Source: Tenericutes bacterium ADurb.Bin087 (lineage in GTDB: Bacteria; Bacillota_I; Bacilli_A; RFN20; CAG-826). From it: 64,000 bases of DNA. The stretch spans positions 1,821-65,820 of the forward strand of contig MWEF01000006.1 of the NCBI GenBank assembly GCA_002070905.1. The letters run 5' to 3'. A program made the position numbers and the translations under genes. Positions within the stretch are counted from its first letter, which is position 1. The number at the start of each line of letters is the position of its first letter. Under the pieces are notes generated by a model that was given only the letters and a program-made list of their open reading frames with translations, searched no databases and was not told the DNA's origin. Shown piece after piece: positions 24,488-63,276 of this stretch.

Positions 24488-24567
24488 GTTCTTCTTTTGT
24501 TAAAAAATAAATAGTTTTACATCTTGTTAAATTTCAGTTAAAATTCATAGTGATAGGAGAAAATTTT

Positions 24568-35228: not shown

Positions 35229-35231
35229 TGT

Positions 35232-37058: not shown

Positions 37059-37141
37059 ATCTTCCTGTCTTTTAATAGTCTACTATTAAAGTATTCTACG
37101 CTATTATACATTAAATGTCTTGCAATTTAATATTGATAAAA

Positions 37142-37183
37142 CAAAAAAAGGTACATATTTACACACTTTAAGTAAATTGTACC
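37142..37183 (-). terminator. intrinsic terminator between the two ABC pairs
   Basis: On the minus strand, GGTACAATTTAC ... GTAAATATGTACC long stem followed by TTTTTTTGTTTT. Confidence 0.7.
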
Positions 37184-37213
37184 TAGTAAAGTGCTTTCAT
37201 TGACAGAAGCAAA

Positions 37214-46496: not shown

Positions 46497-46554
46497 ATGT
46501 TTTGTGGTGTTCTGTTGTTATGTTTTGTGGTAATTTGATAATGTCTTTTGTGAT
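46497..46554. repeat. direct repeats ATGTTTTGTGGT x2 plus a degenerate third copy
   Basis: Exact 12-mers at 46497-46508 and 46520-46531. ATGTCTTTTGTGAT at 46541-46554. Confidence 0.8.
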
Positions 46555-46604
46555 AAACACAAGACATATTAGAATTAAAATAGTATCAGTACAGCAATAT
46601 TTCA

Positions 46605-48371
46605 TCACTTATAATTAACAATTAACATCTCATTAGCGAAAGATACATTAGAAATACAGGCGCGACGATCAGGTGAAGGTTTATCAATATGGGTATGAAT
46701 TGGATAAACAATTTTAAGTTCACTTTCTTTTGTCAAAAAGAGTGAAGGATGACCTGGTCCTGAAGTTAAGCCATCAATTTTCTTAATAACTGGTCCATGC
46801 TTACACTTTTCGTATGGTCCTAGAACATTTTCACTGCGCGCAAGACCAACAGCGTGTGCTGGATTAATAAAATAGTTAGCGGTATACAATAAGTAATAGT
46901 ATCCATCGTGATAATATAGCGCCGGCCCTTCGTTACGATAAAATAAATCATCTGCATTATACTCCCAAGGTTCACTTGGTGTTAATAGTAACTTCGGTTC
47001 ACCAATTGTTTTTAAGAGTGTGTCGTCAAGTCTAACAATATATATCTCCGAAGTTTGCTGATTACCAACAAAATTCGTCGAACAATGCATTACGAAAAGT
47101 AAATATTTATGACCGTCTTCATCGATAAAGAGCGTGGCATCTGTTGTTGATTTCCCCTTTATATTAATAAGTGGACTCTCTTTATTTATATCCTTATACG
47201 GACCATCAATCTTCGCGGCTTTAGCAACATTAATATGCATTAAGTCATCATTACCACGCGCTGAATAAAACATATAAAACTCATTATTATACTTATAAAC
47301 TTCTGGTGCCCAAAAGTCCATATTTCCAAAGGAGTTAGTCTTGTCTAATACTGTCCCGCCTTCACTAAAATGATCAAGGTTTTCACCTTTATACACTACG
47401 AAGCGATCGCCACGCACGCGCGTGCCAAATAAATAATAAAAGCCATTTTCATAAATAATAAATGGATCACCAATTTTATTAACATTCGTAAAAAGAGTGC
47501 CGCCTACTTGTTTAGCTTTAATTACACCAAAGTGGCGCGTACGAAACTTACTTGGTGTCATATTATAAGTATCTTTAAAAGCTTTGATAAAAGAATACTT
47601 CGTACGAAACCCGACACTATTATAAATAACTTCTAACGTATAATTATGGTTTTCAAGCAATTGAACCGCTTTTTGCAGGCGATATTTCGTTAAATACATA
47701 CCAGGTGACACACCAAATTCTTCTTTAAAAGCATGGCAAAAGTGATAATACGAATAATTAGAGGTATTTGCCAAATCTTTGACATTAATATTGTTTTGAT
47801 AATTGATTTCAATATATTCTTTTACTTGCTCTAGCGCAGTGTTAATATTGTATTTTTGGTCACTTGTGACAATATTGAGCAATATTTCATAGATAATAGT
47901 CGAAAGTCTTATGTAGGACGGATTATTCTTGCGCAGTTCATCTAACGCTTCATTAAAGAGTGCACTGAATTCGTCTTTCTTGTCATGTAATACCGCGCTT
48001 TTATTACGCATCGCGAAAAGGCGATAAATAGTTTGAATGTTATTACCTCTAAAATAGCCAAATAAAGCGTGGCAAGGTAGGACACTATTTTGTTCAAACG
48101 TAAAACCAAGATTGCTATCAAGAAAAGCTAAATCCCCAGCTTTGAGTACAGCTTTAGTATTTTGATAATTTAGGATTACACTACCTTCAGTTACGAGCCA
48201 TATCGTATATTCAGACAAACCTTTTTTCGTGTTAGCGTAACCCTGTTCAAGCTCTAAAAAACCAATTTGCCGATAATTATATAAGAAAACAGAATCAATG
48301 ATTTCTTCTTGATGGTATATCTCCGTTTTAAGGCCAAAGCGTTGGATTACTTTATCAATCATCTCTAACAA
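46605..48371 (-). CDS. AraC-family transcriptional regulator fused to a GH43 glycoside hydrolase domain
   Basis: The N-terminus has a cupin-like sensor and an AraC HTH (..YYHFCHAFKEEFGVSPGMYLTKYRLQKA..FRTKYSFIKAFKDTYNMTPSKFR). The C-terminal ~300 aa carry GH43 blocks GDPFIIYENGFYYLFGT, FWAPEVYKYNNEFYMFY, DATLFIDEDGHKYL and NEGPALYYHDGYYYLLY. The start is TTG at 48371 or ATG at 48362. Confidence 0.8.
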   Translation of the reverse strand: MLEMIDKVIQRFGLKTEIYHQEEIIDSVFLYNYRQIGFLELEQGYANTKKGLSEYTIWLVTEGSVILNYQNTKAVLKAGDLAFLDSNLGFTFEQNSVLPCHALFGYFRGNNIQTIYRLFAMRNKSAVLHDKKDEFSALFNEALDELRKNNPSYIRLSTIIYEILLNIVTSDQKYNINTALEQVKEYIEINYQNNINVKDLANTSNYSYYHFCHAFKEEFGVSPGMYLTKYRLQKAVQLLENHNYTLEVIYNSVGFRTKYSFIKAFKDTYNMTPSKFRTRHFGVIKAKQVGGTLFTNVNKIGDPFIIYENGFYYLFGTRVRGDRFVVYKGENLDHFSEGGTVLDKTNSFGNMDFWAPEVYKYNNEFYMFYSARGNDDLMHINVAKAAKIDGPYKDINKESPLINIKGKSTTDATLFIDEDGHKYLLFVMHCSTNFVGNQQTSEIYIVRLDDTLLKTIGEPKLLLTPSEPWEYNADDLFYRNEGPALYYHDGYYYLLYTANYFINPAHAVGLARSENVLGPYEKCKHGPVIKKIDGLTSGPGHPSLFLTKESELKIVYPIHTHIDKPSPDRRACISNVSFANEMLIVNYK

Positions 48372-48409
48372 AATTTAACACTAATTTAACAAAATTTGCA
48401 ATAGATATC

Positions 48410-48425
48410 AGAACATATATGTTCT
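48410..48425. promoter_or_regulatory. perfect 16-bp palindrome in the divergent promoter region (candidate operator)
   Basis: AGAACATATATGTTCT. Upstream of it are three AATTT(A/G)(A/C)A direct repeats (48372-48401). Confidence 0.4.
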
Positions 48426-48454
48426 ACAATTTAATTGTGAAAGATTACTGCAAT

Positions 48455-51400
48455 ATGAAAAAAATGAAAATGGCCTTGTTAGGCGTTTTATTATTAGCGG
48501 GTTGTAACAACACTACTTCTTCACTTTCTTCAACTCCTGAAAATTCATTTTCAACTTCGGAAATAGCTAGTGAAGTCACTTCTTCAGCGGAAGATTCTGC
48601 CACAAGCGAAGATATTTCAATACCTGATCCCGTTTACCTTGATTACATTGTGCTTGATACAACGGCGGTCAAAACTGAATTTTACTACGATGAAACATTT
48701 ACTGCTGAAGGATTAATCGTCACCGCTTACTTCACTGATGACTCTTTTAGTGTTGTTAGTGACTTTGGTGTTAGCGCACCAACTTTCGAATTAGGATTAC
48801 GTGACGTTAGTGTATCTTATACATTTGAGAATATTACAAAAGTGGCAACTTATCAAATTGAGATTAAAGATCGCTTAGGTCCCACTGATTGTATTATCAA
48901 TAGTGTCTTTAATAAAGAGGTCAGCAATCAAGTCGTTTATTTAAATGAATCTGAATATATCGAATTTAAAGCACTGGAAAATTATGAAGATGTTTTAGAT
49001 GTTCAGGTCGCACTTAATTCTTATGTGACTAATGTTACTTATAATGCTGCTGACCGTCACTTGTCATGGCTAGTAACTGATGGAGTTTCTTCTGCTACTT
49101 ATTACGTAACGATTAATGTGCGTGAAGCCTTTGGTGCAAGCACTTTTGTCAGTGGATATGGTAGTAATGATTATATTACGTGGAGTTATTTATACGATGG
49201 TTACCATATTAATAAAACAAGTAGTTTTGGTTCGGCAACTTATTATTACGCTGATGGTAAAGCGATAATTGGGAAAAGTTATGAAGTTTCATTTAATGTT
49301 AGTCTTGATGAATTAGAAGAAAATGCTGAATTTAAAGTTGAACTGCTTTCGGAAACTGGGTATATGATTCGTTTTGTGTGTCGGGTCGCTAGTGATCTAA
49401 GTTTAACGTTCCTAAGTGACCGTTATGACGGTGAATTTATGAATTATCTTACCCACAAGGCCGCACTTGACAATAAAGCGATGCATTGGAAAATAATTGT
49501 GTTTAATAATGTTGCCCGCTGGATAGTGGATAACGAATTAATATATGAGCGCGCAGTTTATGAATCACGCGAATCATCATTTTGTATTTCTGCGGGTAAA
49601 CTAAGCGCGACAATTTCACAAATTGACCATTTGCTTGACACTAATACGGTAAGCGCAAACTTCAATTACTATAATGAAATCGCTAATACTTTAATTCCAA
49701 ACTTTGGCAAACTCACAAATGGTAATGGCTGGAATCTCGATAAAGTAATTTATGAAAATAATAACTATATTATCAATCAAGATTTAAGTTCTTCAAGTCG
49801 CACAGCAGGGGCGCTCTATACCCACGGCTCACAAGTTTATGGTAGTCGCTTTGGGGTGAAAGGTACTGTGCGAATTTATGATACAAAAACTACTGGCGGC
49901 GCTGCTTCAAAAGTAGAATTCCAAGTGTATATGAACGCTTCTAACTATATTAAGTTTTATCTTTATCGCTATTCCACGACAAATAACTCACTTTATATTG
50001 AAGGGATGAATAGTCAATTAGGAAAAATTCCATTAACTAGAATTATGAATAATACATTTGAGGCAGGTACCGATATTACACTAAATTATGAAGTATTATT
50101 TGATTTAGGTAATATTTACTTCGTTATTGATAATGAACTCGTCCATTATTATCAAAGTGGGTGGCGGAAAGCAGGCTACGCTTTTGGTGTTCTTCAATAC
50201 GCGAAAACGACTTGGAGTAACACGGAAATCTTTGATTACAATAATACATATGACGAAGCTTATTTATTTAAAGACCAATTAAATGCGTTACGTAATCGCA
50301 ATAATGCCTTCTTGTCTGATGACTATTTCGTTAACACAAGTAGCGATATGTATGTAAAGGAAGATTACACAACTGGTTTTAGTCAAGTAATGATTGAGGG
50401 TGAACCTTTAGCCAATGACTATTATGTCTTTGGTGGCAGACTTATTAATTATCAAGCGCGAGCGTGGGGCCAAGCGGAAATTACGATATATAGCGATGAT
50501 TATCATTCTTATCGTTATGTGTTAGAAAAAACAGATCGTGGTGAGTTCCAAGTGTTTACCGAATATAAAAATGTCGATGGCACGAATTGGTTAGGGCGTA
50601 AAAACGTCATTGCGCCTCATTCCCGCAATAAAAACTTTATGACTTTTGAAGTTGTCGTGAACGCTGATAGTGTTTATCTCTTAATTAATAATCTCATTTA
50701 CCATTCTTATGTTAGTGAAAATGACTTTATCCCGCGCTATGTGCAAATTGGTGGAAGAGCCACTTACGTTGCATTTTGTGATGGTTATTATAAATATATG
50801 GAGGCTAGCGAAATGAGTGATTACATTGCAACATTAAAAGAATACGAATATATTTCACCTTACACAAATAGGATTGATTCACTTGCGGCCAAATACGCTA
50901 GTGCGACGCCAGGCGGAACACTTTTCCTAGGTAGTTCAACGATTGACTTTTGGAGTACGTGGGCGACAGATTGTGCTCTTACTGACGGTGTTACTGGATA
51001 TAACGTCGGGATTGGTGGCACACTTGTTGAAGATTGGTTCTACGCTTACGATAAGCTTGTTAAACCATTTAACGCGAGTCGTTTTGTCATCTTCGTCGGT
51101 GGCAATAATATAAACGCTAACGGTGATACTGCCGAATACACCGCAAACTTACTTGATCAATTTATTCTGAAAATACATCAAGAATTCCCTGATTCAGAAA
51201 TATATTACATTTATTCATTACCAACACCTAGTAACTACGCTAACGGGGTTTATACATATGAATACGGACAATTAATCGTGCGGATGAAAGAAATTTGTGC
51301 AACAAGAGACTATGTTACTGGTGTCGATATGGAAGCAGCACTGAGTCAAGATGGTAATCCAATTCCTGGCTACTTCCTTAGTGACGGCATTCACATGAGT

Positions 51401-51463
51401 GAAGCAGGGTACGCTGCTTGGACTAAAGTTGTTAGAAAAGAAATTTTTAAATATTTAGATTAG
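48455..51463 (+). CDS. surface lipoprotein: Ig-like domain, three concanavalin/LamG-like modules, C-terminal SGNH esterase
   Basis: Lipobox LLLAGC and an S/T-rich linker. A Big_3-like segment follows (YLDYIVLDTT..GLIVTAYFTDDS..VSVSY). There are three repeats ending ..DNELIYE, ..DNELVHY and ..NNLIYHS. SGNH blocks are LFLGSSTIDFW, GIGGT, FVGGNNI and SDGIHMSEAGY. Confidence 0.75.
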   Translation: MKKMKMALLGVLLLAGCNNTTSSLSSTPENSFSTSEIASEVTSSAEDSATSEDISIPDPVYLDYIVLDTTAVKTEFYYDETFTAEGLIVTAYFTDDSFSVVSDFGVSAPTFELGLRDVSVSYTFENITKVATYQIEIKDRLGPTDCIINSVFNKEVSNQVVYLNESEYIEFKALENYEDVLDVQVALNSYVTNVTYNAADRHLSWLVTDGVSSATYYVTINVREAFGASTFVSGYGSNDYITWSYLYDGYHINKTSSFGSATYYYADGKAIIGKSYEVSFNVSLDELEENAEFKVELLSETGYMIRFVCRVASDLSLTFLSDRYDGEFMNYLTHKAALDNKAMHWKIIVFNNVARWIVDNELIYERAVYESRESSFCISAGKLSATISQIDHLLDTNTVSANFNYYNEIANTLIPNFGKLTNGNGWNLDKVIYENNNYIINQDLSSSSRTAGALYTHGSQVYGSRFGVKGTVRIYDTKTTGGAASKVEFQVYMNASNYIKFYLYRYSTTNNSLYIEGMNSQLGKIPLTRIMNNTFEAGTDITLNYEVLFDLGNIYFVIDNELVHYYQSGWRKAGYAFGVLQYAKTTWSNTEIFDYNNTYDEAYLFKDQLNALRNRNNAFLSDDYFVNTSSDMYVKEDYTTGFSQVMIEGEPLANDYYVFGGRLINYQARAWGQAEITIYSDDYHSYRYVLEKTDRGEFQVFTEYKNVDGTNWLGRKNVIAPHSRNKNFMTFEVVVNADSVYLLINNLIYHSYVSENDFIPRYVQIGGRATYVAFCDGYYKYMEASEMSDYIATLKEYEYISPYTNRIDSLAAKYASATPGGTLFLGSSTIDFWSTWATDCALTDGVTGYNVGIGGTLVEDWFYAYDKLVKPFNASRFVIFVGGNNINANGDTAEYTANLLDQFILKIHQEFPDSEIYYIYSLPTPSNYANGVYTYEYGQLIVRMKEICATRDYVTGVDMEAALSQDGNPIPGYFLSDGIHMSEAGYAAWTKVVRKEIFKYLD

Positions 51464-51474
51464 GAGGCAAAAAT

Positions 51475-53109
51475 ATGAAAAAGAAATTTTCGATCGCACT
51501 CTCATCGCTAGCGGTTATCGCGATGGCAGTACCGCTATGTCTTAAAGGACCTGCGCATAATGAAAAGGTCTACGCTAGTCCCGAAGTACTAGCGCTAAAA
51601 CAAAAGGTAGTCATGAACTACACTGCTGAAACTTACGGAATTGATGAAGGTGTCGATACCTTTAAATACGACGTTACAGGGCAAAGAGAACTTGCGGTAA
51701 GGTTAAATCTTCATACGATTTATAATCGAGACGGCTTAACCTTAACAGGCATTGGTTCACGACAAGGCGATAGTCACGTTGTAACTAATACTGCTGAATT
51801 CTTAAAAGGACCCGCTTACTATGTTGATGGTAATAAAAGCTTCAGTTATATTGATGAAACTGTCACAGCACTAACCTTTAGTTATTGGGTCAAAGGCAGT
51901 GCCGCTAATGACCAATTTGGGACCGCTACCAACACTCAATTTGGGCAAAGAGAAGGCGCTTTTTCCATCAGAAACTGGAACGCTGATGATAATATCTTGC
52001 GCTCTATTGACTTTTGTTATGGTTCCGTAATGTCTTATGAAGTTAATAGTAGCAACTACACTACTGACAGAAGTAACCAATGGATTACAATTGGGATGGT
52101 ACGTGAAGTTGGCAACATGACGCTATACAACGGGGGAACAAGCACTTCCTTTTATAATGACGGAACAGCTTGGGATTTACACACTTATACAATGGATCCG
52201 ACTAACGGATTAACAATGTATAAAAATGGGGTGAAATTAGTTAATTATTTACCAGCCGCTACAACTTACACTACAGGTTTAACTGGTGTTGTTCGCATTA
52301 GTGCCCAAGGGCTATTAGATATTTGTTTAAGTATTCTTCGATCAACACACGCTAACTTCCATGTGCACCGCGGTTATAAAGGAACGGGCACATATGTTTC
52401 TGCTTCAACAGCAGGGATTGCCCTTGATGAATTTAATATCTTTAAAGGTGCACTAAGTGACACTGAAGTTGAATTACTTTATAACTCATATAAAGGTGTT
52501 AAATATTATGATGGTGCGACTGTCTTAAAAACATATTCTGATTTAGTGGGCACTAATGTTCCTGCATATTCACCCGCTAAAGCAAACTTTGCGTTCTATC
52601 GCTGGGCAAGTGATGCTGAACTACAAAACCCAGCAACAGTAACGGCAATTCCAAGTGCGGACACTAATTTATATGCCGACTGGAAAAACGCCGCAAATGT
52701 CACTAATGGCGGGATTAACGCGGCAACTTCGTTTACTGATGCTTATATGCACATGGCCGATGCTGCTTTTAATACAGGTAACTATGTTGGCGAATGCGAT
52801 AAGAAAGACGGAATAACTGGTTTATCCCCATATGATGAAGCTAAAGCGGCATTTAATGCGATGAGTGATGAAGGGCGCTTTGCCTTTGTGACTGATGCTC
52901 AATTCACTAATGCTTATGCGCGATTACAAGCATGGGCAACCGCTAATGGCGATGTCTTCTCAGGCACCACAATCGTCGCAGCAGGTGGTTCACGCCTAGT
53001 TATCAATGAAAGTACCACTACTTCATTAATTCCACTTATTGCAATCGCCTTCGTGTTTATTACATTTGGATTTATCTACATTAACCGCAAAAAGAAAAGT
53101 TATAACTAA
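51475..53109 (+). CDS. exported LamG (Laminin_G_3-like) protein with a Listeria-Bacteroides (Flg_new) repeat and C-terminal TM anchor
   Basis: Signal peptide present. LamG-type ending LDEFNIFKGALSDTEVELLYNSY. Flg_new-like VKYYDG...FAFYRWASD...TNLYADW. C-terminal IPLIAIAFVFITFGFIYI followed by NRKKKSYN. AGGAGG RBS. Confidence 0.7.
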   Translation: MKKKFSIALSSLAVIAMAVPLCLKGPAHNEKVYASPEVLALKQKVVMNYTAETYGIDEGVDTFKYDVTGQRELAVRLNLHTIYNRDGLTLTGIGSRQGDSHVVTNTAEFLKGPAYYVDGNKSFSYIDETVTALTFSYWVKGSAANDQFGTATNTQFGQREGAFSIRNWNADDNILRSIDFCYGSVMSYEVNSSNYTTDRSNQWITIGMVREVGNMTLYNGGTSTSFYNDGTAWDLHTYTMDPTNGLTMYKNGVKLVNYLPAATTYTTGLTGVVRISAQGLLDICLSILRSTHANFHVHRGYKGTGTYVSASTAGIALDEFNIFKGALSDTEVELLYNSYKGVKYYDGATVLKTYSDLVGTNVPAYSPAKANFAFYRWASDAELQNPATVTAIPSADTNLYADWKNAANVTNGGINAATSFTDAYMHMADAAFNTGNYVGECDKKDGITGLSPYDEAKAAFNAMSDEGRFAFVTDAQFTNAYARLQAWATANGDVFSGTTIVAAGGSRLVINESTTTSLIPLIAIAFVFITFGFIYINRKKKSYN

Positions 53110-53133
53110 TTAACTTTTTAAAACAATTAGACT

Positions 53134-53164
53134 AGACCTAGAATTCAACTAGGTCTTTTCTTTT
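53134..53164. terminator. bidirectional intrinsic terminator between the convergent operons
   Basis: AGACCTAG-aattcaa-CTAGGTCT hairpin followed by TTTTCTTTT. Confidence 0.75.
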
Positions 53165-53184
53165 AACGATTAGAATCTTTTAAA

Positions 53185-54630
53185 TCACTGGTAAACAACA
53201 TTGAATACATAATCAATATATAAAGTGTAACCAGCTGCGTTAAGGTTATAGTTATTTTTATATAAATTCGTTTTAATTGAGTTATCGTCATTAATAAATA
53301 ATGGTAATGTGTTAATAAAATTACACCAAGTTTTATCTGCTGAATATGCACTTAAATAATTATTAAATGTAATTATTGAAGTTGTTCTCCCTGGATAGTT
53401 TTTAATTGGATTAACCGACACAACATAAATATTTGTATCTGGTAATAATGAATGGATTTCATCAAGGAAAGCAATATATTCATCTTTCATCTCTTCAATT
53501 GATGTTTTCCATAGTGTTATATCTTTACCACCAATGTTAAAAATGACATTTTTAGGCTTATGTTTAGTAACGATACTTACATATTCTAGCCAATCTTCTA
53601 AATACCAATCAACATTAGCAATTACATAAGAATTCTTACCATCTAAATCGGTGTTTGCGGAAAACCAGTTTGTGAGTGAATAATACGAATCTCCGACAAA
53701 TAAATAATCAACATCAATGTTTTCATTAATTCCAAATGTTCCGTCTTCCCGTAAAATATAATAGCTCCACGCATTAAGGAAATCGGCTTCAATCATATTG
53801 CCCCAACTAGTAGCGCTTGGACTATTTGAGTTTCGCATGGCCACGGCAAAAGAAAGATTACCAAGTGCAGCTTCATATGTTGTACCGATTGCACTATATG
53901 GGATGTAAAAAGAAACTTCGTAACCATCATATCCATCAAGAATTAGAGCGCGTTCTACTGCCGAAGCCATAATCCCATCTTGCAGTGGACTGTTAGCACT
54001 CATTGCATTTGAGGTTGTAAAAATATTCATATATGAATTTCCGGCTGCGTCACACAGCACTTTAATGGCTTCATTTGTATTATAACCAGCGGGATTAGTT
54101 GATGGGGTTGCCGCAACAGCTATTTCGACATTATCATTGTAACCTGTCGTATTCGCAGTAAAGATGATTTCATCGGTGACGCACGCCACAACACTTAAAC
54201 CATTTTCTTCATAATCAAATGACCAATAACTCTTTGCTTCCATCGCATCAACACGTGCATAACTTAAAAATGCACCTCGTAATTTACTTTCGATTGGCAG
54301 CCAAGCAGCATAAAATGTTGTATCTTTTTCTAGTTCAAATGGAAAAGTAACTACTTCATCACTTAAATCCGCTAATAAATGCCACCCCGCAAAGTCAAAA
54401 CCTTCTTTTGTTGTTTCAGGTTCAGTCGTAATTACATTGGTGGTGTATGGCGCGATTTCACTACCACCATTTGTCACAAAAGTAACATAATAATAAGCAT
54501 CACCATACTTGACACTAAGTTCTTCGACACTGCTACTTTCGACACTACTAGCGGAAGAACCACAACCGACAAGTAACAAGGATAACACAACTAAAATTAA
54601 ATTTTTCTTGTTCATAGGCTTAAAACACAA
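53185..54630 (-). CDS. surface lipoprotein: Flg_new repeat, beta-sandwich (CBM-like) domain, degenerate SGNH domain
   Basis: Lipobox LLLVGC. Flg_new-like YYVTFVTNGGSEI..GFDFAGWHL..TTFYAAW. SGNH block I is FVGDSYY, but block V reads NNYNLNAAGY, with no Asp or His. TTG start at 54630 is 9 nt behind GGAGG (alternative ATG at 54615). Confidence 0.7.
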   Translation of the reverse strand: MCFKPMNKKNLILVVLSLLLVGCGSSASSVESSSVEELSVKYGDAYYYVTFVTNGGSEIAPYTTNVITTEPETTKEGFDFAGWHLLADLSDEVVTFPFELEKDTTFYAAWLPIESKLRGAFLSYARVDAMEAKSYWSFDYEENGLSVVACVTDEIIFTANTTGYNDNVEIAVAATPSTNPAGYNTNEAIKVLCDAAGNSYMNIFTTSNAMSANSPLQDGIMASAVERALILDGYDGYEVSFYIPYSAIGTTYEAALGNLSFAVAMRNSNSPSATSWGNMIEADFLNAWSYYILREDGTFGINENIDVDYLFVGDSYYSLTNWFSANTDLDGKNSYVIANVDWYLEDWLEYVSIVTKHKPKNVIFNIGGKDITLWKTSIEEMKDEYIAFLDEIHSLLPDTNIYVVSVNPIKNYPGRTTSIITFNNYLSAYSADKTWCNFINTLPLFINDDNSIKTNLYKNNYNLNAAGYTLYIDYVFNVVYQ

Positions 54631-56563
54631 TATTGTGTTCCTCCATTATTTCAATTATTCCTTCGCAGATCAAATTCATCCATGTCGATAATGTTTTAGT
54701 GTCCATATGCGTCCACATTTCCCACCCATCAGGATATTCAAGCATTCTATTATAAACAAAGTCATATGTATCAATATAATGGACGTAATCTAACTCACTA
54801 GCGTATTTTTTCGCCCATTCATTAATTCTTTCAACCGTTTGATACATTTCCGTGCGACCGGGAAGCGGGGAGGAATTAACAATTGCAATCACACAATCAG
54901 GCAATTGTTCATGAACTTTTTTTACATATTTATCGGTCAAAGCGGCAATATCTTTTTCCGACATGCTCCAATAAGCTTGGTCATTACTTGTTAAATTAAA
55001 GCATAAAATCTTCGGAGCATAACCAATCACTAATTGATCTGCGTAATGATAGTAGTTGTATGTAGATCCACCAGCGACTGCATTATTAATTAATGGTAGT
55101 CCCCGTGCCGCAAAATCACTTTCAGCAGTGTAAGCTAACGAGAAGTTTGAATTGCCATTAAAGACAATTTTTCCGTGCGGGGCATTATATGTTCCGTCTG
55201 TCATTGCTAGTAAATTAATCGCATGAAAATATTTTGTATTGTCATAAGAAGATATTAAATATTTAGCGTAATAATCTTTGTCTGTTTGATGGTTAACTTT
55301 TGTGGGATCAACTGGATTATATTTAGTGTTTGAATCACTCCATGCCACAAAATTATGCTTATAACCGTCCGTGTCGATTGCATAATCGACGACTGGTTCA
55401 TCTTCCGCTAATAAAACTTTACCCTTCACTACTTTTCGTGTGATAACTTCTTCACCATTTAATCCTAAATGTAAATTAACATTACACACATTAAGCTCAT
55501 CCACTAGTGTAGCAGTTGCAATAATTTCTGGGTCAGTTATCTCAATTACATGATCGCATTTAGCGCAAATGCCAACACATTCATTGCTACTATTTTTGTA
55601 ATAAACATAAGTATGATGTTTGTTAGTAATATTGGTAAAATACGTTTGACCACAAGCACAGCGATACACATCCGCCCCATCTTGTGTACAACTTGCGGGT
55701 ATTGTATGTAACAATGCAAAATTATGATTACATGTCGCGCCTTTTTTAGCAAAAATCAGACTATCAAAATAAACTTTTGATTGACTATCATCTTCTTTAA
55801 ACCCCCTTGTTATAACGTGTGAGTAATTAAGATATTCGTAGTCATTAGTGACGAAAGCATCTTCCGTCATCATATAATTTGTTTCTGGACGCCCATTCCA
55901 ACCAAACGAAGTAAATGGCATATATAACCAACCTCTAAAATGTTCTTTAACTTGGACAGTTTTATTCATAATCACTGTGTTTTTAAATGATGATGACATA
56001 TAGTCATAATAGTAAGCTGTTCTACCATCCACTAGATAATAATGCGAAAAGTGCCCGCCTCTCTCGCCTTCATTCCACAAATAGGTTGTTACTGGTGGTT
56101 CGGTAGGTGAGTTCATTAAAACAAGGCCAATACCTAAACCAATTGTCTTTACATTACTGCGGGCGTCAGGTTCAGAAGCATCAAAATACATTAAGAGACC
56201 ATCAGCATCGCTAATCGCAATATTTTCTAATTTTGTTTGCAGTCTTAAAAGCGGACTCGTTCCACCACCTGGTAAACCAATATGATAACGCGTACCAAAT
56301 TCATCACTAACATAGCCATAACTTTTAGTAATTGATTGGGTAGTGTAGTCACTAATATCAATGTAACCAACATCAGTACCATTAAATTCAAAGGTGGCAA
56401 CAGTCGTATACTTATAGTCACCTGGTAAAGAACTAGGGGCAGTATAATAGTGCGTGTCTAAATAAAGTTGAGCAGCGTTAACTTTATCTTTAAATGGTTT
56501 GACGCTAATCGTGCCTATTATTAAGAAAAATAAAGCACTCAAAAGTATTCGCTTCTTTTTCAT
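54620..56563 (-). CDS. exported protein: beta-sandwich domain, Cys/His-rich module, Flg_new repeat, SGNH-like domain
   Basis: Signal peptide present. The Cys-rich CNHNFALLHTIPASCTQDGADVYRCACGQTY...ECVGICAKCDH is followed by Flg_new-like ..HNFVAWSDS..DYYAKY. C-terminal blocks are VFNGNSNF, AVAGGST, LTSNDQ and WTHM. The start overlaps the upstream stop (TAATG). Confidence 0.7.
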   Translation of the reverse strand: MKKKRILLSALFFLIIGTISVKPFKDKVNAAQLYLDTHYYTAPSSLPGDYKYTTVATFEFNGTDVGYIDISDYTTQSITKSYGYVSDEFGTRYHIGLPGGGTSPLLRLQTKLENIAISDADGLLMYFDASEPDARSNVKTIGLGIGLVLMNSPTEPPVTTYLWNEGERGGHFSHYYLVDGRTAYYYDYMSSSFKNTVIMNKTVQVKEHFRGWLYMPFTSFGWNGRPETNYMMTEDAFVTNDYEYLNYSHVITRGFKEDDSQSKVYFDSLIFAKKGATCNHNFALLHTIPASCTQDGADVYRCACGQTYFTNITNKHHTYVYYKNSSNECVGICAKCDHVIEITDPEIIATATLVDELNVCNVNLHLGLNGEEVITRKVVKGKVLLAEDEPVVDYAIDTDGYKHNFVAWSDSNTKYNPVDPTKVNHQTDKDYYAKYLISSYDNTKYFHAINLLAMTDGTYNAPHGKIVFNGNSNFSLAYTAESDFAARGLPLINNAVAGGSTYNYYHYADQLVIGYAPKILCFNLTSNDQAYWSMSEKDIAALTDKYVKKVHEQLPDCVIAIVNSSPLPGRTEMYQTVERINEWAKKYASELDYVHYIDTYDFVYNRMLEYPDGWEMWTHMDTKTLSTWMNLICEGIIEIMEEHNIVF

Positions 56564-59500
56564 TAGTCTGCTCCCTCCTCAAGTTCTGTTTTAATTCTAA
56601 CAAGCACACCAGTAAAGGTGTCTGTTTTATCAAACACATAATTTGTATTCATGAATTCGGTGTCGTTTGTCCCAGTCAGATTACTCTCTAAATAAAGGAT
56701 TCTCGCTAATGGATTTTCGCTTTCAAAACAATTTAGTGCACTATAAATGGTAATTATTCGCACTAATTCAAGGGCATTATCTGAAATGTAATATATATTA
56801 CAATTTGTCGTTGTCCCCGAATTACTTGTCCCATAAATTGCGCGTGGATTCGTATTTCCATTAATTACACCTGCATTCGTACAGTTTGTAATCGTAGTGT
56901 AATTACCGCGCCCAAGAATTCCGCCGGCATCACTATGTTCAACACTAATTGTGCCAGTTGAAACACAATTATCAATGATTTTAGCGCTATTAGATTCACT
57001 ATAGCCAACAATCCCGCCAGCCATGTAATAAGCTGACACGTTACCCGCATTAAAACAGTTAGTAATTGTAGTAGCGTAAATTGAACCAACAATCCCGCCC
57101 ACGCCACGCCAAAGTTTTGACTCTTTACCGCTATTGCCACTTACCTCACCATAATTCGCGCAGTTAGTGAGATTAGTTCCAGTGCCAATTCTACCAACAA
57201 TGCCACCAATATGACCAGAGTAGGTAGCTAATTCGCCTGCTTGCGTTGGTGCGTGGCCTTCAACTTTTCCAAAGTTATAACAATTTTCGATGCCGGTAAT
57301 AGTTGCGCCTTCACGATAAAAACCAACAATCCCGCCTAGACCAGAAACACCACTTATCGTCCCGCGATTAACACAGTTAAGAATTGATGTTCCCGCGATT
57401 GCATAACCAAACCCAACAATCCCGCCGACACATTGTCCACTTGATGTAAACGCTGATGCATATGTTGAAGTTATTAGGCCATTATTATGACAATTAATAA
57501 TTTTCCCAACCTTATTAATAACATTATCACCATTAATTGCGGTAATGCCACCGATGTAAATACCATCACCGATTACTTCAGCTTCATTAACACAATTTTC
57601 AATCGTACCAAAATTATAAACACAGATTCCACCGACCCGATGATAACCTTGAATAATACCTTTTAATGTTAAGTTTTTAATAATTCCTTCATTTGTGCCA
57701 AATAAGGCAATATTTATACTACTGTTTTTAGCCGCATTAATAATGGTGATTGAATGATTATTACCATCAAACACACCTTTAAATGGCCGTGCTTTTGTAT
57801 TTTCGGTATTGCCAATATTGATTGAACTTGAAACACTAATATCATTTTCTAAACGATAGTAAACGTTTGCTTGTGTGTAATTATCATCATTACTTTCACA
57901 TCTTGCTTTCAAAAGTTCAAAATCTTGTGTCGTTTTAATAATAAATGGATCATCTTCAAAGCCTGTACCACCACTAAAATAGCTCGAAAATGCTTGAATT
58001 GTAGAAGTTTTTACCAAATCTGGAATATCAAATTCTTGGGTTGGATTATTCGGATCATAGTAATTAATATTACGAATTAATCCCGCTCCGTTAGTCGAGG
58101 CTACTAAATAACTATATGCTGATGTCGCATTAATAACGTCAAGTGCTCCATAATTTTCATTAAAGGCATAAGTACCATTATTAGCGCGACCAATAATCCC
58201 ACCAGCGTGCGGTTCAGTACTTTCGCTATAAATTAATGCACCAGGCATATTAATCGAGTATTTAACAATAGTAGCATCACTCCCACTTACGTATCCTGCA
58301 ATACCACCAACTTGTTGATTACCAATTACTTTACCGTGATTGCGCGAATATGAAATTTTAGAAGCGCTATAGATTGAACCAGCAACACCACCTATTCCGC
58401 CCCAGCGCGAAGGATTATCTCTTGTACCATGTCCCTTAACCTCACCATAATTCTCGCAGTAATTAACTTCATTAGTGCTGCCTAACATCCCAACGACACC
58501 GCCAATATGGACTGCTTCTAAGTCATTAGTGTCAAAACAAGAAACATCAGCGTAATTAATACAATTTTCAATATTTAAATACCCTTTGTTTGACCAACCA
58601 ACAACGCCGCCAACACCGTAATATCCTTTGACATTCGCGCCTACTTTGTTTGTGCAGTTAATAACATTTCCGCTACTTTGATAACCAACAACGCCGCCTG
58701 CATAATATGCACTTTCGCCAGTCGTTACAACGCCTTCATTATGACAATTAATCACATCAAAATAGGTTGTGGAAGTAACGCCACCCGCGTACCTATCTTC
58801 AGCGTGCACCGCTCCATAATTAATACAATTTTCGAGTTTTGCAACTGAACTAGCGTTATCTGATACTGCTCTAGTACCATTTAGCCCGCTAATTCCGCCA
58901 ACACAAACATTACCAGTTATATCCCCTTCATTAATTGAGTCATATACTGGTAATACATTTGAACCAAAAATACCACCAACAGAGTGATTCCCTGTAACAT
59001 TTCCAAAGTTTTTATTGCCACGATTCGCGTATAAATCAAGGTCTTCATCTTTATACATACCATACTTATAAATCGTATAACCTAAGCCACATATACCACC
59101 AATGTACTGCGTTTTTGGACCTGACACAATAACATCGCCATAGTTTTCGTTATTTGTTAAAACACCAAGACTTTCACCACATATCCCGCCAAAATACATC
59201 GCATTTTCATTAAGTGCATTTGTATCATTACCCGTAATAGTTCCGTAATTTTTACAACCTTTAATTTCTGATTGCTGACGCTTAACAATCATTTCGTCAC
59301 TACGCGCAATGCCACCATTAATGCCCCCAACATAAGCATCACCATGAACATTAGCTTTATTAATACAATTTTCGATAAGTGCGTTATTATAAATACCGCC
59401 ACACACACCCGCGGCAAATGAGTGGGAATAGGCGTGACCTTCAGGAATACTGACGCGGACACTACCTTCAACCGTGACATTTTTAATCACACCACTTGCA

Positions 59501-60132
59501 AAGCCAAATAGTCCTTGCCATGAATCAGTGGTATCAATAAATAAATCAGAAACTGTCTTATCATTCCCGTCATAAATCCCTTCAAAAGGCACGCCAAAAG
59601 TGCCAATTGGTGTCCAATATGGAAATTCTGCAAGGGATATATCATTAATTTGTTTAAAATACTTACTAGTAAAATCTTTATAATCTAAAACGGCCACACT
59701 TAATTTCTTTAAATCAGTCGCCGTTTCAATTAAATAGGGACTACTTTCACTACCATTACCCTTTAAATCAAATTCATAAGTTATGATGACTTCATTTGGA
59801 TCTAAAATGACTAATCTAGTGGAAATAGTTTTATCGTGAGCGGAAGCAACAATATTAGTTGTTCCGACCGCTAAAGTTGTTAAAGTACTACCACTAATAG
59901 TAGCAATTGCATTATTTTCACTACTATAATTTATTTCCGCATATTCATACGATGTTGTCACAATATTATTTAAATCAAAAGTACTATTTATATTTAATTT
60001 AATCTCATCCTGGACAAACTTTAAAACATGACTCGGCCCTATAATGCTGCTTTCTTCACTTGATGAAGATGAACATGAAGAAAGAAACAGTGAAACCATT
60101 GTTAATACTATTAGTAGTGGCCTTTTTTTCAT
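56563..60132 (-). CDS. large surface lipoprotein with a Big_2 domain and two GLUG-repeat (beta-helix) lobes
   Basis: Lipobox FLSSC. Big_2-like segment (..AIATISGSTLTTLAVGTTNIVAS..). Roughly 20 repeats of the (V/I/A)GG(I/V)xG type. Each lobe opens with a GSESSPYLIETATDLKKL or GFEDDPFIIKTTQDFELL motif. Start taken as the ATG at 60132 (MKKRPLL). Confidence 0.75.
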   Translation of the reverse strand: MKKRPLLIVLTMVSLFLSSCSSSSSEESSIIGPSHVLKFVQDEIKLNINSTFDLNNIVTTSYEYAEINYSSENNAIATISGSTLTTLAVGTTNIVASAHDKTISTRLVILDPNEVIITYEFDLKGNGSESSPYLIETATDLKKLSVAVLDYKDFTSKYFKQINDISLAEFPYWTPIGTFGVPFEGIYDGNDKTVSDLFIDTTDSWQGLFGFASGVIKNVTVEGSVRVSIPEGHAYSHSFAAGVCGGIYNNALIENCINKANVHGDAYVGGINGGIARSDEMIVKRQQSEIKGCKNYGTITGNDTNALNENAMYFGGICGESLGVLTNNENYGDVIVSGPKTQYIGGICGLGYTIYKYGMYKDEDLDLYANRGNKNFGNVTGNHSVGGIFGSNVLPVYDSINEGDITGNVCVGGISGLNGTRAVSDNASSVAKLENCINYGAVHAEDRYAGGVTSTTYFDVINCHNEGVVTTGESAYYAGGVVGYQSSGNVINCTNKVGANVKGYYGVGGVVGWSNKGYLNIENCINYADVSCFDTNDLEAVHIGGVVGMLGSTNEVNYCENYGEVKGHGTRDNPSRWGGIGGVAGSIYSASKISYSRNHGKVIGNQQVGGIAGYVSGSDATIVKYSINMPGALIYSESTEPHAGGIIGRANNGTYAFNENYGALDVINATSAYSYLVASTNGAGLIRNINYYDPNNPTQEFDIPDLVKTSTIQAFSSYFSGGTGFEDDPFIIKTTQDFELLKARCESNDDNYTQANVYYRLENDISVSSSINIGNTENTKARPFKGVFDGNNHSITIINAAKNSSINIALFGTNEGIIKNLTLKGIIQGYHRVGGICVYNFGTIENCVNEAEVIGDGIYIGGITAINGDNVINKVGKIINCHNNGLITSTYASAFTSSGQCVGGIVGFGYAIAGTSILNCVNRGTISGVSGLGGIVGFYREGATITGIENCYNFGKVEGHAPTQAGELATYSGHIGGIVGRIGTGTNLTNCANYGEVSGNSGKESKLWRGVGGIVGSIYATTITNCFNAGNVSAYYMAGGIVGYSESNSAKIIDNCVSTGTISVEHSDAGGILGRGNYTTITNCTNAGVINGNTNPRAIYGTSNSGTTTNCNIYYISDNALELVRIITIYSALNCFESENPLARILYLESNLTGTNDTEFMNTNYVFDKTDTFTGVLVRIKTELEEGAD

Positions 60133-60230
60133 AGTTCTCACTTCCTTTTTATATAGCACTATCACGGAAAGAGTTGCCGAGCACTTAGCAACTCTCCCCG
60201 TGATTAAGATAGTGTCACATTAATAATTTA

Positions 60231-62201
60231 TTAGATTGTTCTTTTTCTTCTTGAAACGAAGACAAAGCCTAAGGCTGCAAGTGCAGCAAAACCTAACATC
60301 ATAAAGATATTTGCTTGATTGCTAAATAAGGATCTTTGTAATCCTGCACCACCGCCACCACCACTGGTGTAGGCTAAAATGTAGTCCGCAGCATCAACAT
60401 AGGTTCCAGTTACTCCGGCATATCTACCATAATACGTGAGTTGATTTAATAGCGCTAAATCATCCGCAGAAAGACTAGCGCGTAATGCCGCTAATTCGGT
60501 TCGATAAGAGTATGACGTACATTCAAATTCACGAACATACATAATAAAGTTTTTAACATCAGCACTCGCTGAAACAGCAAGTCTTGTATGTAAACCAGTC
60601 GTTCCAACGTCTTCTTTAGGTGTACATAAGGCAATTGAATAATTATTTAGTGGATTAATTACATCATAACTGCGTACGCCAGCAAGAGAACCAATATATA
60701 CTGCAGCTGAGCCCGTGTAAGCAGAAATTAAATCACCCGCTGATAAGAAACCTTGAATTTCTGTTTGCCCATCATAAGTTATGGTTGCAGTGGCTTGTTT
60801 ATGTAGCCCAACAGCACCACCTATATAAGCAGCAGTGTCTCCCGTATGTTCAATAGTTCCAGTATTAGCACAATTAATAATCTTTGTTACTCCATGATCT
60901 GAGTGACCATTAATTCCCCCGGCACCATATGCATTTGCGGAATCAAGGACGATTTTGCCATAATTTGAACAATGGATATATTGAGAGCCGTCATAAGAAA
61001 ATCCACCAATTCCACCTATATCACCACGAACACTACCACTTCCAGTAGCGTAAGTTGATTTGATAATTCCAAAATTAGCACAGTTTGTAATCGTAGTTCC
61101 CGTATTACTAATGCCATCACCATTAATTGCTACGATACCACCACCAAACTCTTTATTAACCGTTATATTTCCATGGTTTTTACAATTATCAATTGATGCA
61201 CCATTTCGTGAATAACCAGCAATACCGCCGACATTACCCTTAGCAATGCCCACTACCGATAAAGTAGAATAATTTGTACACTTAGAAATTGAAGCACCGT
61301 TTTCACTATAATAACTAATCCCAGCCATATAACCAATGTTGGTAGGATATGTCGCTAATGCAGATGATTTAGAATTGCTAATTACCGCATTTGCTCCGCT
61401 ATTTAAATGTGCTATTCCGCTTGAATAAACACTTAGTCCAGCTGGATCTACACCAATTGTTCCGTTATGTGTACAATTAGTAATCGTTCCATAATTCTTT
61501 GTAGCGATACCAGCAGCTCCATTAGTTGAGGCAGTAACTGTTGTTGTTCCATTATTTACACAGCCATCAATTAATGCTCCTGCTTTATTGTCATTACAAA
61601 TGCCAGCAGGTATTTTTGCTTTAACTATTCCATTATTTGCACAATTTAGTACTTTACCTTTATTTGCAACATTTTCATAAACAAATCCCGCTGCATAGTC
61701 ACCAGTTGCGGTAACACTAACCGAACTTGTACAATCTTCAATCTTCCCATTATTATATGTACAAAGCACAGCAGAATAATTTGACCCTGTTATCGAACCA
61801 GCAAAATTAGTGTTTTTGAAAACACCATTATCACCAATGTTTCTAAATAGATTCGTACACGTTGAAGTTAAATTAGCGTTTAATGTAATAGTATGACCTT
61901 TACCATCAAATGTACCACAGAAAAAGCTTCCATTTAGTGGCTTTGAAGTAATCGTATAACTTACATCTGCCGCTAGTTCTATTAATTTTCCTTCCCAGCA
62001 TTTAGTGTTATCATGTGTAGATTGAGCGTTTATATCGTCAATAAACGTCGCAAATTCAGCATTTGTAGAAATTACTAAATCTGGTATTGGTGCAGCTGCT
62101 ATGCGCTCCGTTCTCATTTTAGCGGTTGAGACAGCAATGGTAGTCACACATAAGAGTCCAAAACATAAGGCTAAAAATGAGCGTCTGTGATTTTTTTTCA
62201 T
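60231..62201 (-). CDS. GLUG-repeat (beta-helix) surface protein with C-terminal TM anchor
   Basis: Signal peptide present. About 10 xGGIxG-type repeats (VGGIAGYS, GGGIVAIN, IGGIGGFS, AGGINGHS ...). The C-terminus is GGGGAG...IFMMLGFAALAALGFVFVSRRKRTI. Strong RBS AAAGGGAGGG. Confidence 0.75.
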   Translation of the reverse strand: MKKNHRRSFLALCFGLLCVTTIAVSTAKMRTERIAAAPIPDLVISTNAEFATFIDDINAQSTHDNTKCWEGKLIELAADVSYTITSKPLNGSFFCGTFDGKGHTITLNANLTSTCTNLFRNIGDNGVFKNTNFAGSITGSNYSAVLCTYNNGKIEDCTSSVSVTATGDYAAGFVYENVANKGKVLNCANNGIVKAKIPAGICNDNKAGALIDGCVNNGTTTVTASTNGAAGIATKNYGTITNCTHNGTIGVDPAGLSVYSSGIAHLNSGANAVISNSKSSALATYPTNIGYMAGISYYSENGASISKCTNYSTLSVVGIAKGNVGGIAGYSRNGASIDNCKNHGNITVNKEFGGGIVAINGDGISNTGTTITNCANFGIIKSTYATGSGSVRGDIGGIGGFSYDGSQYIHCSNYGKIVLDSANAYGAGGINGHSDHGVTKIINCANTGTIEHTGDTAAYIGGAVGLHKQATATITYDGQTEIQGFLSAGDLISAYTGSAAVYIGSLAGVRSYDVINPLNNYSIALCTPKEDVGTTGLHTRLAVSASADVKNFIMYVREFECTSYSYRTELAALRASLSADDLALLNQLTYYGRYAGVTGTYVDAADYILAYTSGGGGGAGLQRSLFSNQANIFMMLGFAALAALGFVFVSRRKRTI

Positions 62202-62409
62202 ATTTTTCCCTCCCTTTCTTTAAGTAAAAAATATTATGAAACTATGTTGTCTTGCGACAAATAATTCTAAATCCTGTAAGTCTTTTTATTTTTTTCTTCA
62301 TAGATTTCTAACCATTATTATTTTTTATCTTATGCACATATTTATTATATTTTACAAATATATTAATTAGAATGTTTTATATTACAAAAAACATGTATAA
62401 TATTAAAGG

Positions 62410-63276
62410 ATGGAAAAGAAAAAACATAGCTTTAAAGTATTTGGTAACGAAAAGGAATTACTGACATATTTTCCTTATCGTGATGATTGTAATTCACAAT
62501 TAGATGACTACCCTATTCACATTGAAGCAGTGGGAATTACTAAGCCAGATTCCAATTATCGGGTGTTAAGAAATAATTGGAACATTTATACAATTGAATA
62601 TATTATTTCTGGGAATGGTTATCTCGAATATAATGGCAAAAATTACAAACTTTCAAGTGGCGATATGTATATTTTAACGCCTAACTCAATACAAAGATAT
62701 GGTGCAGAAAAAGACAATCCTTATGAAAAAATATGGATCAATTTTCGCAGCAAAAATTTCATCAAAATTTTAGAGTCATTGAAATTAAATAAAAGCCCTG
62801 TCTTCCATTTCCCAGATGCATATGAATACTTAAAGGAAATTTACACCTTAAAAGATACACATCATTTCGTTGAAGATTCGTCGTACATTTGTTATAAATT
62901 ACTATTTAATTTACTTATTGATATTAAAGAAAGCGAAAACAAAAAAGTAAATATTTTTCCGCAATATTTGTCAGATGTCTTAGCTTATATTGACAAAAAG
63001 ACACCAGATCCTGTTTCAATTGAAGAATTAACAAAAATCGCTAACGTATCACAAGTCTGCTTAATAAATAATTTTAAAAAACACATTGGTGAGACCCCAT
63101 ATTCTTATCAACTTAAAACACGATTGAAACTTGCCAAAATGTATTTAACTAATTCAGATAAGACATTAGATGAAATTGCAGAATTATGTTTTTTTTGTGA
63201 TGCTTTCGCACTTTCAAAAGCATTCAAAAAAGTGTATGGTTTGTCTCCGCGTGAATATCGTCAATCGGAAATATAG
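62410..63276 (+). CDS. AraC-family transcriptional regulator
   Basis: 288 aa with an N-terminal cupin-like domain (SGDMYILTPNSIQRY) and a C-terminal double HTH (..ETPYSYQLKTRLKLAKMYL..FALSKAFKKVYGLSPREYR). Confidence 0.85.
   Translation: MEKKKHSFKVFGNEKELLTYFPYRDDCNSQLDDYPIHIEAVGITKPDSNYRVLRNNWNIYTIEYIISGNGYLEYNGKNYKLSSGDMYILTPNSIQRYGAEKDNPYEKIWINFRSKNFIKILESLKLNKSPVFHFPDAYEYLKEIYTLKDTHHFVEDSSYICYKLLFNLLIDIKESENKKVNIFPQYLSDVLAYIDKKTPDPVSIEELTKIANVSQVCLINNFKKHIGETPYSYQLKTRLKLAKMYLTNSDKTLDEIAELCFFCDAFALSKAFKKVYGLSPREYRQSEI

Follow-up and report, generated by a model that had tools for sequence, protein, structure and literature searches.

Positions 46605–63276 of the window carry eight long open reading frames (ORFs), two encoding AraC-type regulators and six encoding exported proteins. 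The window is the whole 64,000-nucleotide stretch analysed here, from an anaerobic-digester metagenome-assembled genome (MAG), Tenericutes bacterium ADurb.Bin087, phylum Mycoplasmatota. The exported products are named P2 and P3 (plus strand) and P4, P5, P6 and P7 (minus strand). The main finding is that the four minus-strand genes form a conserved cassette: P7, P6, P5 and P4 are orthologous, in the same order and translationally coupled across many lineages. The minimal conserved pair within the cassette is the N-terminal GLUG β-helix lobe of P6, directly followed by the SGNH protein P5. With roughly even confidence, we read the locus as two independent neighbouring modules, of which the one containing the cassette (module B) would be an anchored β-helix scaffold that presents an O-acetylesterase, together with a lectin-like pseudoenzyme, to acetylated plant polysaccharide. 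The other (module A) consists of P2, P3 and an AraC regulator fused to a glycoside hydrolase family 43 (GH43) domain.

Conservation of the four-gene cassette

The cassette was found in about a dozen distinct rumen and metagenome contigs (loci L005/L012, L008, L009/L013, L014, L015, L022, L023, L025 and L026). At every P5-homologue locus with flanks available, the four genes lie on one strand in the order P7-P6-P5-P4; in L008, P6 is split into two genes. Identity to the window proteins, by BLAST, is 48–60% for P6, 45–50% for P5, 33–41% for P4 and 27–34% for P7. The junctions in all lineages are overlaps of 1–4 nt or gaps of at most 4 nt. In the window, the stop of P6 and the start of P5 overlap as TAATG at 56563, and the P5-P4 junction is an 11-nt overlap if P4 starts at the TTG at 54630 or a 4-nt gap if it starts at the ATG at 54615, both junctions being as originally described.

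The cassette belongs to uncultured rumen and digester Mycoplasmatota/Bacilli. Among the GTDB species representatives, four MAGs from the rumen carry the P5 family; their labels are 'Bacilli bacterium' or 'uncultured Erysipelotrichaceae'. The genes next to the cassette in its relatives include carbohydrate-active ones: GH2, a LacI regulator, a sugar ABC transporter and GH43 in L005, GH31-PA14 and a SASA esterase in L015, and an alpha-amylase in L008.

The core pair extends to remoter lineages. In L019/L020 a homologue of the P6 lobe (40% identical over 569 aa) lies 2 nt upstream of a P5 homologue (30%), and L021 has a similar pair (35% and 24%, respectively), the spacing in these pairs being 1–2 nt. 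P7 and P4 are missing beside these remote pairs. The P6-lobe homologue of L019/L020 has an N-terminal type I dockerin in place of the lipobox, so that the core pair can evidently be delivered to a cellulosome, and this places it within plant-cell-wall machinery. In the searchable literature, no description was found of the P6-P5 pairing or of the four-gene cassette, nor did work on GLUG domains, on the Listeria-Bacteroides repeat with SGNH, or on AraC-GH43 fusions describe such a cassette. The original prediction had likewise known of no system with this composition, and none was found in literature or annotation.

Two modules or one

The original prediction, made from the DNA sequence, took all six exported proteins and both AraC regulators as a single AraC-bracketed unit, an inducible surface apparatus whose sensor would be the GH43 fusion. 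In this genome the genes are indeed adjacent. A single hairpin lies where the two operons meet, an AraC gene is divergent from each of them, and SGNH domains are encoded in both. We nevertheless consider a single apparatus very improbable. The cassette loci carry P7-P6-P5-P4, with a divergent AraC gene upstream in three of the six readable lineages, but no homologue of P2 or P3 is found in any cassette locus of other lineages. All that matches AraC-GH43 in these loci is a separate GH43 gene in L005 and, in L014 and L015, the AraC domain of a different regulator. Only the four minus-strand genes are therefore syntenic across relatives, and the six-gene unit has to be given up.

Conversely, AraC-GH43, P2 and P3 are kept as a trio in L016, L017 and L029, and the three occur together only in a relative at about 85% identity. 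The approximately 0.8 kb that follows P3 in the 83–85% relative contains no match to module B. The two AraC proteins are only about 27% identical to each other, and the GH43 domain of the fusion keeps its catalytic residues, which also argues against a purely sensory role within one apparatus. We read module A as an independent pair of surface esterase genes at genus level, which has a regulator of its own.

P5, the intact SGNH protein

P5 is predicted to consist of a lectin-like β-sandwich (approximately residues 40–285), a Cys/His module (approximately 290–340), a small β module and an SGNH domain (approximately 460–647). The SGNH domain is matched by the Pfam family Lipase_GDSL_2 with 37.8 bits, the gathering cut-off of this family being 32.9 bits. 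Across 14 homologues S472, G498/499, N527 and H619 are invariant, as are C292, H317, C333 and C336; these last four resemble the ligands of a structural metal. There are 13 clusters of P5 homologues at 45–50% identity, and its architecture is rare, with only about 17 full-length clusters in an exhaustive HMMER search of 1.84 billion representatives.

AlphaFold2 generates a model with a pLDDT of 76, in which an N-terminal β-sandwich, small β modules and the SGNH domain can be recognised. The best Foldseek matches of this model are the sialate O-acetylesterases 6xpm and 7pzg. Matches to carbohydrate esterase family 2 (CE2) and to the sandwiches of lectins and carbohydrate-binding modules (CBMs) are weak. 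P5 is the predicted catalytic subunit of the cassette.

The N-terminus of the window P5 contains, like that of most orthologues, an AxA-type signal peptide that looks cleavable, and nothing further to hold the protein at the membrane. The expectation that all six products are exported and membrane-tethered holds as regards export, but in this genome tethering is not apparent for P5. The mode of tethering of P5 differs between lineages, the orthologues P0005 and P0006 having a lipobox and most others a plain signal peptide (alignment A1, columns 1–30).

The Flg_new repeat proposed for P5 could not be found: none of 14 family members is matched, and a profile-profile comparison of the P5 family with the P4 family aligns the SGNH core only. 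The same repeat is present in P4, as discussed below, and is sub-threshold in P3.

It is worth adding that the Cys/His module (window positions 55540–55700) is found as 7–12 tandem copies in the giant proteins P0162, P0187, P0202, P0214, P0248 and P0285, one of which also bears Ricin-B and CBM64 domains. The module looks like an unnamed extracellular metal-binding repeat. Pfam scans of the large proteins that share the N-terminal domain of P5 were uninformative on co-occurring domains.

P4, a degenerate SGNH protein

P4 is also matched by Lipase_GDSL_2 (37.5 bits, 4.4e-09), and the Flg_new repeat is matched with 38.5 bits (1.3e-09) in the window protein and in 11 of 11 orthologues. The catalytic residues, in contrast to those of P5, are not conserved. 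None of the six aligned orthologues has the His of block V, and in place of the block III (oxyanion) Asn there is K, A, R, Y or S. Six of the 11 family members give a match to OSK, which is a catalytically dead SGNH fold. P4 is classed as a pseudoenzyme because of these three features, in agreement with the degenerate domain originally described. Judged by the aligned families, the SGNH catalytic residues are intact in P5 but lost from P4.

CBM9_1 is matched in 7 of the 11 members of the P4 family, with a best E value of 2.9e-05. The family profile gives an E value of 0.13 with the CE2 structure 2wao.

The β-helix proteins P6 and P7

P6 is the largest protein of the cassette. GLUG (Pfam PF07581) is matched in nine stretches (2.8e-09), and the protein has two β-helix lobes (lobe 1, approximately 125–690, and lobe 2, approximately 720–1110). 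The AlphaFold2 model has a pLDDT of 85 and contains an Ig-like domain, the two β-helix lobes and a terminal helical bundle. Foldseek identifies the GLUG domain of BACOVA_03286 (3n6z) as the best match (4.6e-06), followed by the IgA1 protease 6xja and Big_2 domains, and the P6 family profile matches 3n6z with 4.2e-18. The model and these matches bear out the description of P6 as a Big_2 domain with two GLUG lobes.

It has to be considered whether the P6 lobe is itself an unrecognised polysaccharide lyase (PL) or hydrolase, with P5 as an accessory de-acetylase, in the manner of rhamnogalacturonan acetylesterase and the β-helix pectinases. The lobe is 50–60% identical across lineages, which is more than any other part, and is strictly coupled to the esterase. 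Its invariant non-glycine residues include Y235, H237 and E309, and D279 is nearly invariant; PL6 alginate lyases and a GH55 glucanase are among the weak fold matches. However, these lyase and hydrolase matches have probabilities of 0.23–0.35 and TM-scores of at most 0.16, and Pfam searches revealed none of the catalytic motifs of known PL or GH families. The strong matches are only to non-catalytic GLUG domains, namely 3n6z and the IgA1 proteases, while the lyase, hydrolase and adhesin solenoids all score weakly. We therefore judge a catalytic helix to be quite improbable, and retain the reading of P6 as a scaffold.

P7 reaches the GLUG cut-off exactly (20.5 bits) and has BLAST similarity to P6-type proteins; on these grounds it is classed as a GLUG-type protein, as was originally proposed, and the transmembrane (TM) tail proposed with it is present in the translation. 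Orthologues occupy the same position in L005, L008, L009, L014, L015 and L026. In the alignment the TM tail is conserved, and the number of β-helix repeats is variable.

This variability, together with the fact that P4 is a pseudoenzyme and that the operon has no transporter or glycosidase, could suggest an adhesin or surface-coat cluster that binds plant fibre, other microbes or host mucus, with the esterase domains accessory or used for binding only. The GLUG helices do resemble adhesin-type solenoids, with weak Foldseek matches to Ag43 and L. reuteri SRRP. Adhesins usually diverge fast, whereas no part of the cassette is better conserved than P5 and the P6 lobe, and the catalytic residues of P5 are invariant over 45–50% divergence, which argues for a selected enzyme activity. 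An adhesin cluster is accordingly rather unlikely in our view, and a scaffold for an active esterase is preferred.

GLUG proteins abound in bacteria of the gut, rumen and mouth (hundreds of matches here). The combination of GLUG with an esterase recurs, both in the genomes of relatives, as in a trio of genes in L009, and in the fusions P0104 and P0114. The trio (L009 14022–18745, minus strand) encodes a 386-aa protein with a weak DHquinase_I-like match, a 663-aa SASA esterase and a 522-aa GLUG protein. L014 (1071–4695, plus strand) encodes a 737-aa protein, again weakly DHquinase_I-like, and a 464-aa GLUG protein that matches the C-terminal part of P7 including its tail. P0104 and P0114 are single chains, each about 2040 aa long, in which an SGNH domain lies between two GLUG lobes. 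These fusions were considered as a sign of contact between P6 and P5, and were set aside as weak support since their SGNH domain is not of the P5 type.

Regulators

Both regulators have the two C-terminal helix-turn-helix (HTH) motifs and the N-terminal cupin of the AraC/XylS family. The plain AraC has Pfam matches to HTH_18 (5.2e-16) and AraC_binding (2.7e-14). The fusion is matched by GH43 (9.7e-50, 170 bits), HTH_18 (7.7e-19) and AraC_binding (1.6e-05), and the identification of one fused and one plain regulator was therefore correct.

In L014 and L015, too, an AraC gene lies upstream of the P7 orthologue and is divergent from it. L008 cannot be read in this respect, since its contig begins inside the P7 homologue. 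A contig from another sample (ERR2642263), 99.9% identical, matches the window only over 46502–62612. The break falls inside the plain AraC gene (L002 position 3951), leaving a 73-aa remnant of AraC, and the sequence past the break contains unrelated genes (a CmpB-type ABC component and HTH_3). Either a genuine rearrangement has disrupted the regulator, or the assembly is chimeric.

The GH43 part of the fusion matches 4qqs with 7.8e-60, and the motifs GDP, TDATLFID (D-A-x-x-F-I-D) and NEGP are identical. We take these to be the GH43 catalytic motifs (base Asp, pKa-modulating Asp and acid Glu). Because they are kept, the GH43 domain may function as an enzyme in the cytoplasm rather than as a sensor alone. 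The fusion also keeps a normal AraC cupin, and thus has two potential ligand- or substrate-binding modules.

Module A

AraC-GH43 is divergent from P2 across approximately 90 bp. P2 has the strongest Lipase_GDSL_2 match of the locus (60.8 bits, 3.1e-16); the SGNH domains originally proposed for P2, P4 and P5 all score above the Pfam cut-off. The motifs GSST, GGNN and DGIH of P2 are invariant in four sequences, and the Asp of DxxH is present. The best sequence match in the PDB is the sialate O-acetylesterase 6njc (8.5e-07). There are just three other homologue clusters: two have 85–86% identity, and the third, in an unrelated context, has 40% across 57% of the length. Homologues of P3 (79%) occur in relatives only beside P2. 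P3 has no Pfam match at 0.01; Flg_new is found with an E value of 0.026. The Flg_new repeat proposed for three proteins is thus clear in P4, absent from P5 and sub-threshold in P3.

LamG and Ig-like modules had been proposed for P2 and P3. Pfam searches to E=10 and self-BLAST for internal repeats revealed nothing of the kind, and the P2 family profile matched only SGNH chains among PDB sequences, with no LamG or Ig. The modules are therefore dropped from the description, although there may be a divergent jelly-roll in P2 and P3 despite these negatives.

A gene for an AAA_14/DUF4143 ATPase (45155–46435, minus strand) lies between AraC-GH43 and a 224-aa SGNH gene. It is absent from the relative L029, at about 80–85% identity, where AraC-GH43 and the 224-aa SGNH gene are directly adjacent. 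The ATPase gene is probably a strain-specific insertion.

Comparison with known systems

The CE2 enzymes CtCE2 (2wao) and CjCE2 (2waa) have the following in common with P5: a β-sandwich before the SGNH domain, an apparent Ser-His arrangement without the Asp at His-3, and a plant-biomass habitat. However, there is no significant sequence relation, and the Foldseek TM-score of P5 to 2waa and 2wao is at most 0.25. P5 differs further in its extra Cys/His and small β modules, and in being genetically locked to a β-helix partner and a pseudoesterase. Its architecture appears analogous to that of CE2, without placing P5 in that family.

The best sequence or fold matches for the SGNH domains of P2, P4 and P5 are the sialate O-acetylesterases of gut Bacteroidales (Phocaeicola vulgatus 7pzg, 6njc and 6xpm). 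These differ in being single-domain periplasmic enzymes with no β-helix partner, and at about 20% identity the likeness does not allow the specificity to be read. P6 shares its head motif and β-helix fold with the GLUG domains of BACOVA_03286 (3n6z) and of the N-terminus of the streptococcal IgA1 proteases (6xja and 7uvk). P6 and P7, unlike the IgA1 proteases, have no M26 protease domain, are lipid- or TM-anchored, and are paired with an esterase.

Dockerin-tagged esterases are accessory enzymes of cellulosomes, and the L019 gene pair, with a P6-lobe homologue bearing a type I dockerin and then a P5 homologue, resembles them. Anchoring in the window proteins is by contrast by lipoprotein and TM tail, and no dockerin or cohesin was found in them with Pfam. 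Finally, AraC-type regulators beside exported carbohydrate-active proteins are reminiscent of Gram-positive polysaccharide utilisation loci, and the cassette of L005 adjoins such a locus. The region 46605–63276 itself contains no transporter or exported GH and is not a locus of this kind, and the cassette moves between lineages independently of such loci.

Every part of the cassette comes from a known superfamily, and we rate it as a variant of surface-displayed carbohydrate esterase machinery. The general description of the locus as surface proteins that combine carbohydrate-binding-type modules, SGNH esterases and GLUG helices next to AraC regulators was sound.

Proposed function of module B

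On the basis of these observations we propose the following arrangement. P6, by its lipid, and P7, by its C-terminal TM helix, would be anchored in the membrane and form a surface scaffold or glycan-binding platform. P5, which here is exported without an anchor of its own, would be held on P6 and strip O-acetyl groups from polysaccharide. P4, with its Flg_new repeat, putative CBM9-like domain and dead esterase fold, would act as a non-catalytic glycan-capture subunit. The AraC regulator would turn the operon on in response to a sugar. The substrate would be acetylated plant hemicellulose or pectin. An acetylated plant polysaccharide is suggested because of the rumen and digester habitat, the dockerin variant and the carbohydrate-active neighbours in relatives; the habitat and the dockerin variant favour plant rather than host material.

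A more specific form of this proposal is that the GLUG lobe and the P5-type SGNH protein make up an obligate two-subunit surface enzyme, in which the helix would feed or cleave the chain, P5 would de-acetylate it and P4 would capture the substrate. This we regard as doubtful.

The SGNH proteins might instead be surface lipases or lysophospholipases, scavenging fatty acids for a Mycoplasmatota cell that is possibly wall-less and lipid-dependent. The fold matches of the SGNH domains do include platelet-activating factor (PAF) acetylhydrolases and entries named 'lysophospholipase L1', and a patatin phospholipase gene (40833–41684) and another SGNH gene (44313–44987) lie nearby. Yet the 'lysophospholipase L1' entries in the PDB are the same chains that have been characterised as sialate O-acetylesterases, the putative CBM9-like module of P4 points to carbohydrate, one P6 homologue bears a dockerin, and the neighbours in relatives are carbohydrate-active. 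Lipid scavenging is decidedly unlikely on this evidence.

Several points weigh against the preferred reading of module B as a scaffold for a polysaccharide O-acetylesterase. P5 does not have a classic triad: there is no Asp at His-3, the motif being W-E-[FM]-W-T-H, with an acidic residue at His-4. The PAF acetylhydrolases, which act on lipids, are among the best SGNH fold matches of P5. Piggy-backing on P6 is not obligatory for P5, since P0005 and P0006 have lipoboxes of their own (LLISC and LLTSC). The window's own P4 has no CBM9_1 match in Pfam, and the L015 orthologue scores 19.4 bits, under the gathering score of 23.4. There is no AraC gene upstream of the P7 orthologue in L005 and L009. 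We know of no established function for the GLUG β-helix in general, and a GLUG match therefore gives the name of a fold and not a mechanism. Lastly, the substrate is inferred from habitat and gene neighbours only.

Gene layout and other features of the window

The features of the locus are listed in Table 1. The eight ORFs agree in coordinates and strands with those originally predicted; the public gene calls on the identical contig have lengths of 585, 1014, 544, 476, 647, 1189, 656 and 288 aa. P5 and P6 match proteins recorded for Tenericutes bacterium ADurb.Bin087 with 100% identity, and P3 and P7 are also recorded for it. The public annotation of the exported products is 'hypothetical' or a bare domain name, and NCBIfam has no family for any of the six.

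Table 1 Features of the locus and their positions in the window
Feature	Position	Strand	Description
AraC-GH43	46605–48362	−	585 aa; cupin, two HTH motifs, GH43; no signal peptide
P2	48455–51463	+	1002-aa lipoprotein, ORF opens at 48419; large unassigned N-terminal region, intact C-terminal SGNH
P3	51475–53109	+	544 aa, exported; C-terminal TM tail
Hairpin	53134–53156	.	Between the two convergent operons; terminator-like for the plus-strand operon
P4	53185–54615	−	476-aa lipoprotein; Flg_new, putative CBM9-like β-sandwich, dead SGNH; last cassette gene
P5	54620–56563	−	647 aa, exported; signal peptide, β-sandwich, Cys/His module, SGNH
P6	56563–60132	−	1189-aa lipoprotein; Big_2, two GLUG β-helix lobes, C-terminal helical bundle
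P7	60231–62201	−	656-aa GLUG-type protein; signal peptide, C-terminal TM helix and RRKR tail; first cassette gene
Plain AraC/XylS	62410–63276	+	288 aa; divergent from the cassette, 208 bp away
Module B	62410–63276; 53185–62201	+; −	AraC gene; operon P7-P6-P5-P4

Lipoboxes are readable in the translations of P2 (LLAGC), P4 (LVGC) and P6 (LSSC). The translations of P3 and P7 begin with a signal peptide and end in a TM helix with a basic tail. A common helical 'pre-anchor' domain at the C-termini of P3, P6 and P7 was considered and rejected, the hhalign probability being at most 17% and the alignment covering the TM helix only. In Pfam searches no transporter family was matched among the eight products, and the sole glycosidase domain is the GH43 of the regulator, so that the locus has, as predicted, no secreted glycosidase and no sugar transporter.

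The hairpin between the convergent operons had been described as a bidirectional terminator. It has a stem of eight pairs followed by TTTCTTTT on the plus strand. On the minus strand the stem is not immediately followed by a T-run, and the terminator pattern therefore applies to the plus-strand operon only. A promoter scan gave results no better than shuffled sequence. A horizontal origin of the locus, for which a comparison of guanine plus cytosine (GC) content had been suggested, was rejected: the GC content of the locus (0.31–0.38) falls within the range of the window (0.31–0.41), and there is therefore no signal of horizontal transfer.

The remainder of the window is ordinary chromosome, with enolase, ABC exporters, MgtE and similar genes. 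A fusion of an MFS transporter with DUF2804 (24550–26997, plus strand, 815 aa) adjoins a GH2 gene (22357–24069). Four consecutive full-length ABC exporters (33390–40812, minus strand; ABC_membrane and ABC_tran, 585–614 aa) are followed by the patatin phospholipase gene mentioned above.

Implications

The unit of study is here corrected: in place of six genes it is a cassette of four, built on a core of two. The coupling of a GLUG helix to a catalytically intact protein of the O-acetylesterase type provides a concrete and testable functional context for GLUG. In P4, where a pseudoesterase is joined to a putative CBM9-like module, an esterase fold may have been recycled as a lectin. If the two-subunit enzyme is real, it would be the first biochemical role for the widespread GLUG domain, and the cassette would represent a new glycan-processing complex in Mycoplasmatota-type Bacilli, anchored by lipid or TM helix and in one lineage docked to a cellulosome. 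De-acetylation is a known bottleneck in the breakdown of hemicellulose and pectin, and a dedicated surface module for it in uncultured rumen and digester Mycoplasmatota/Bacilli would add to the picture of fibre degradation.

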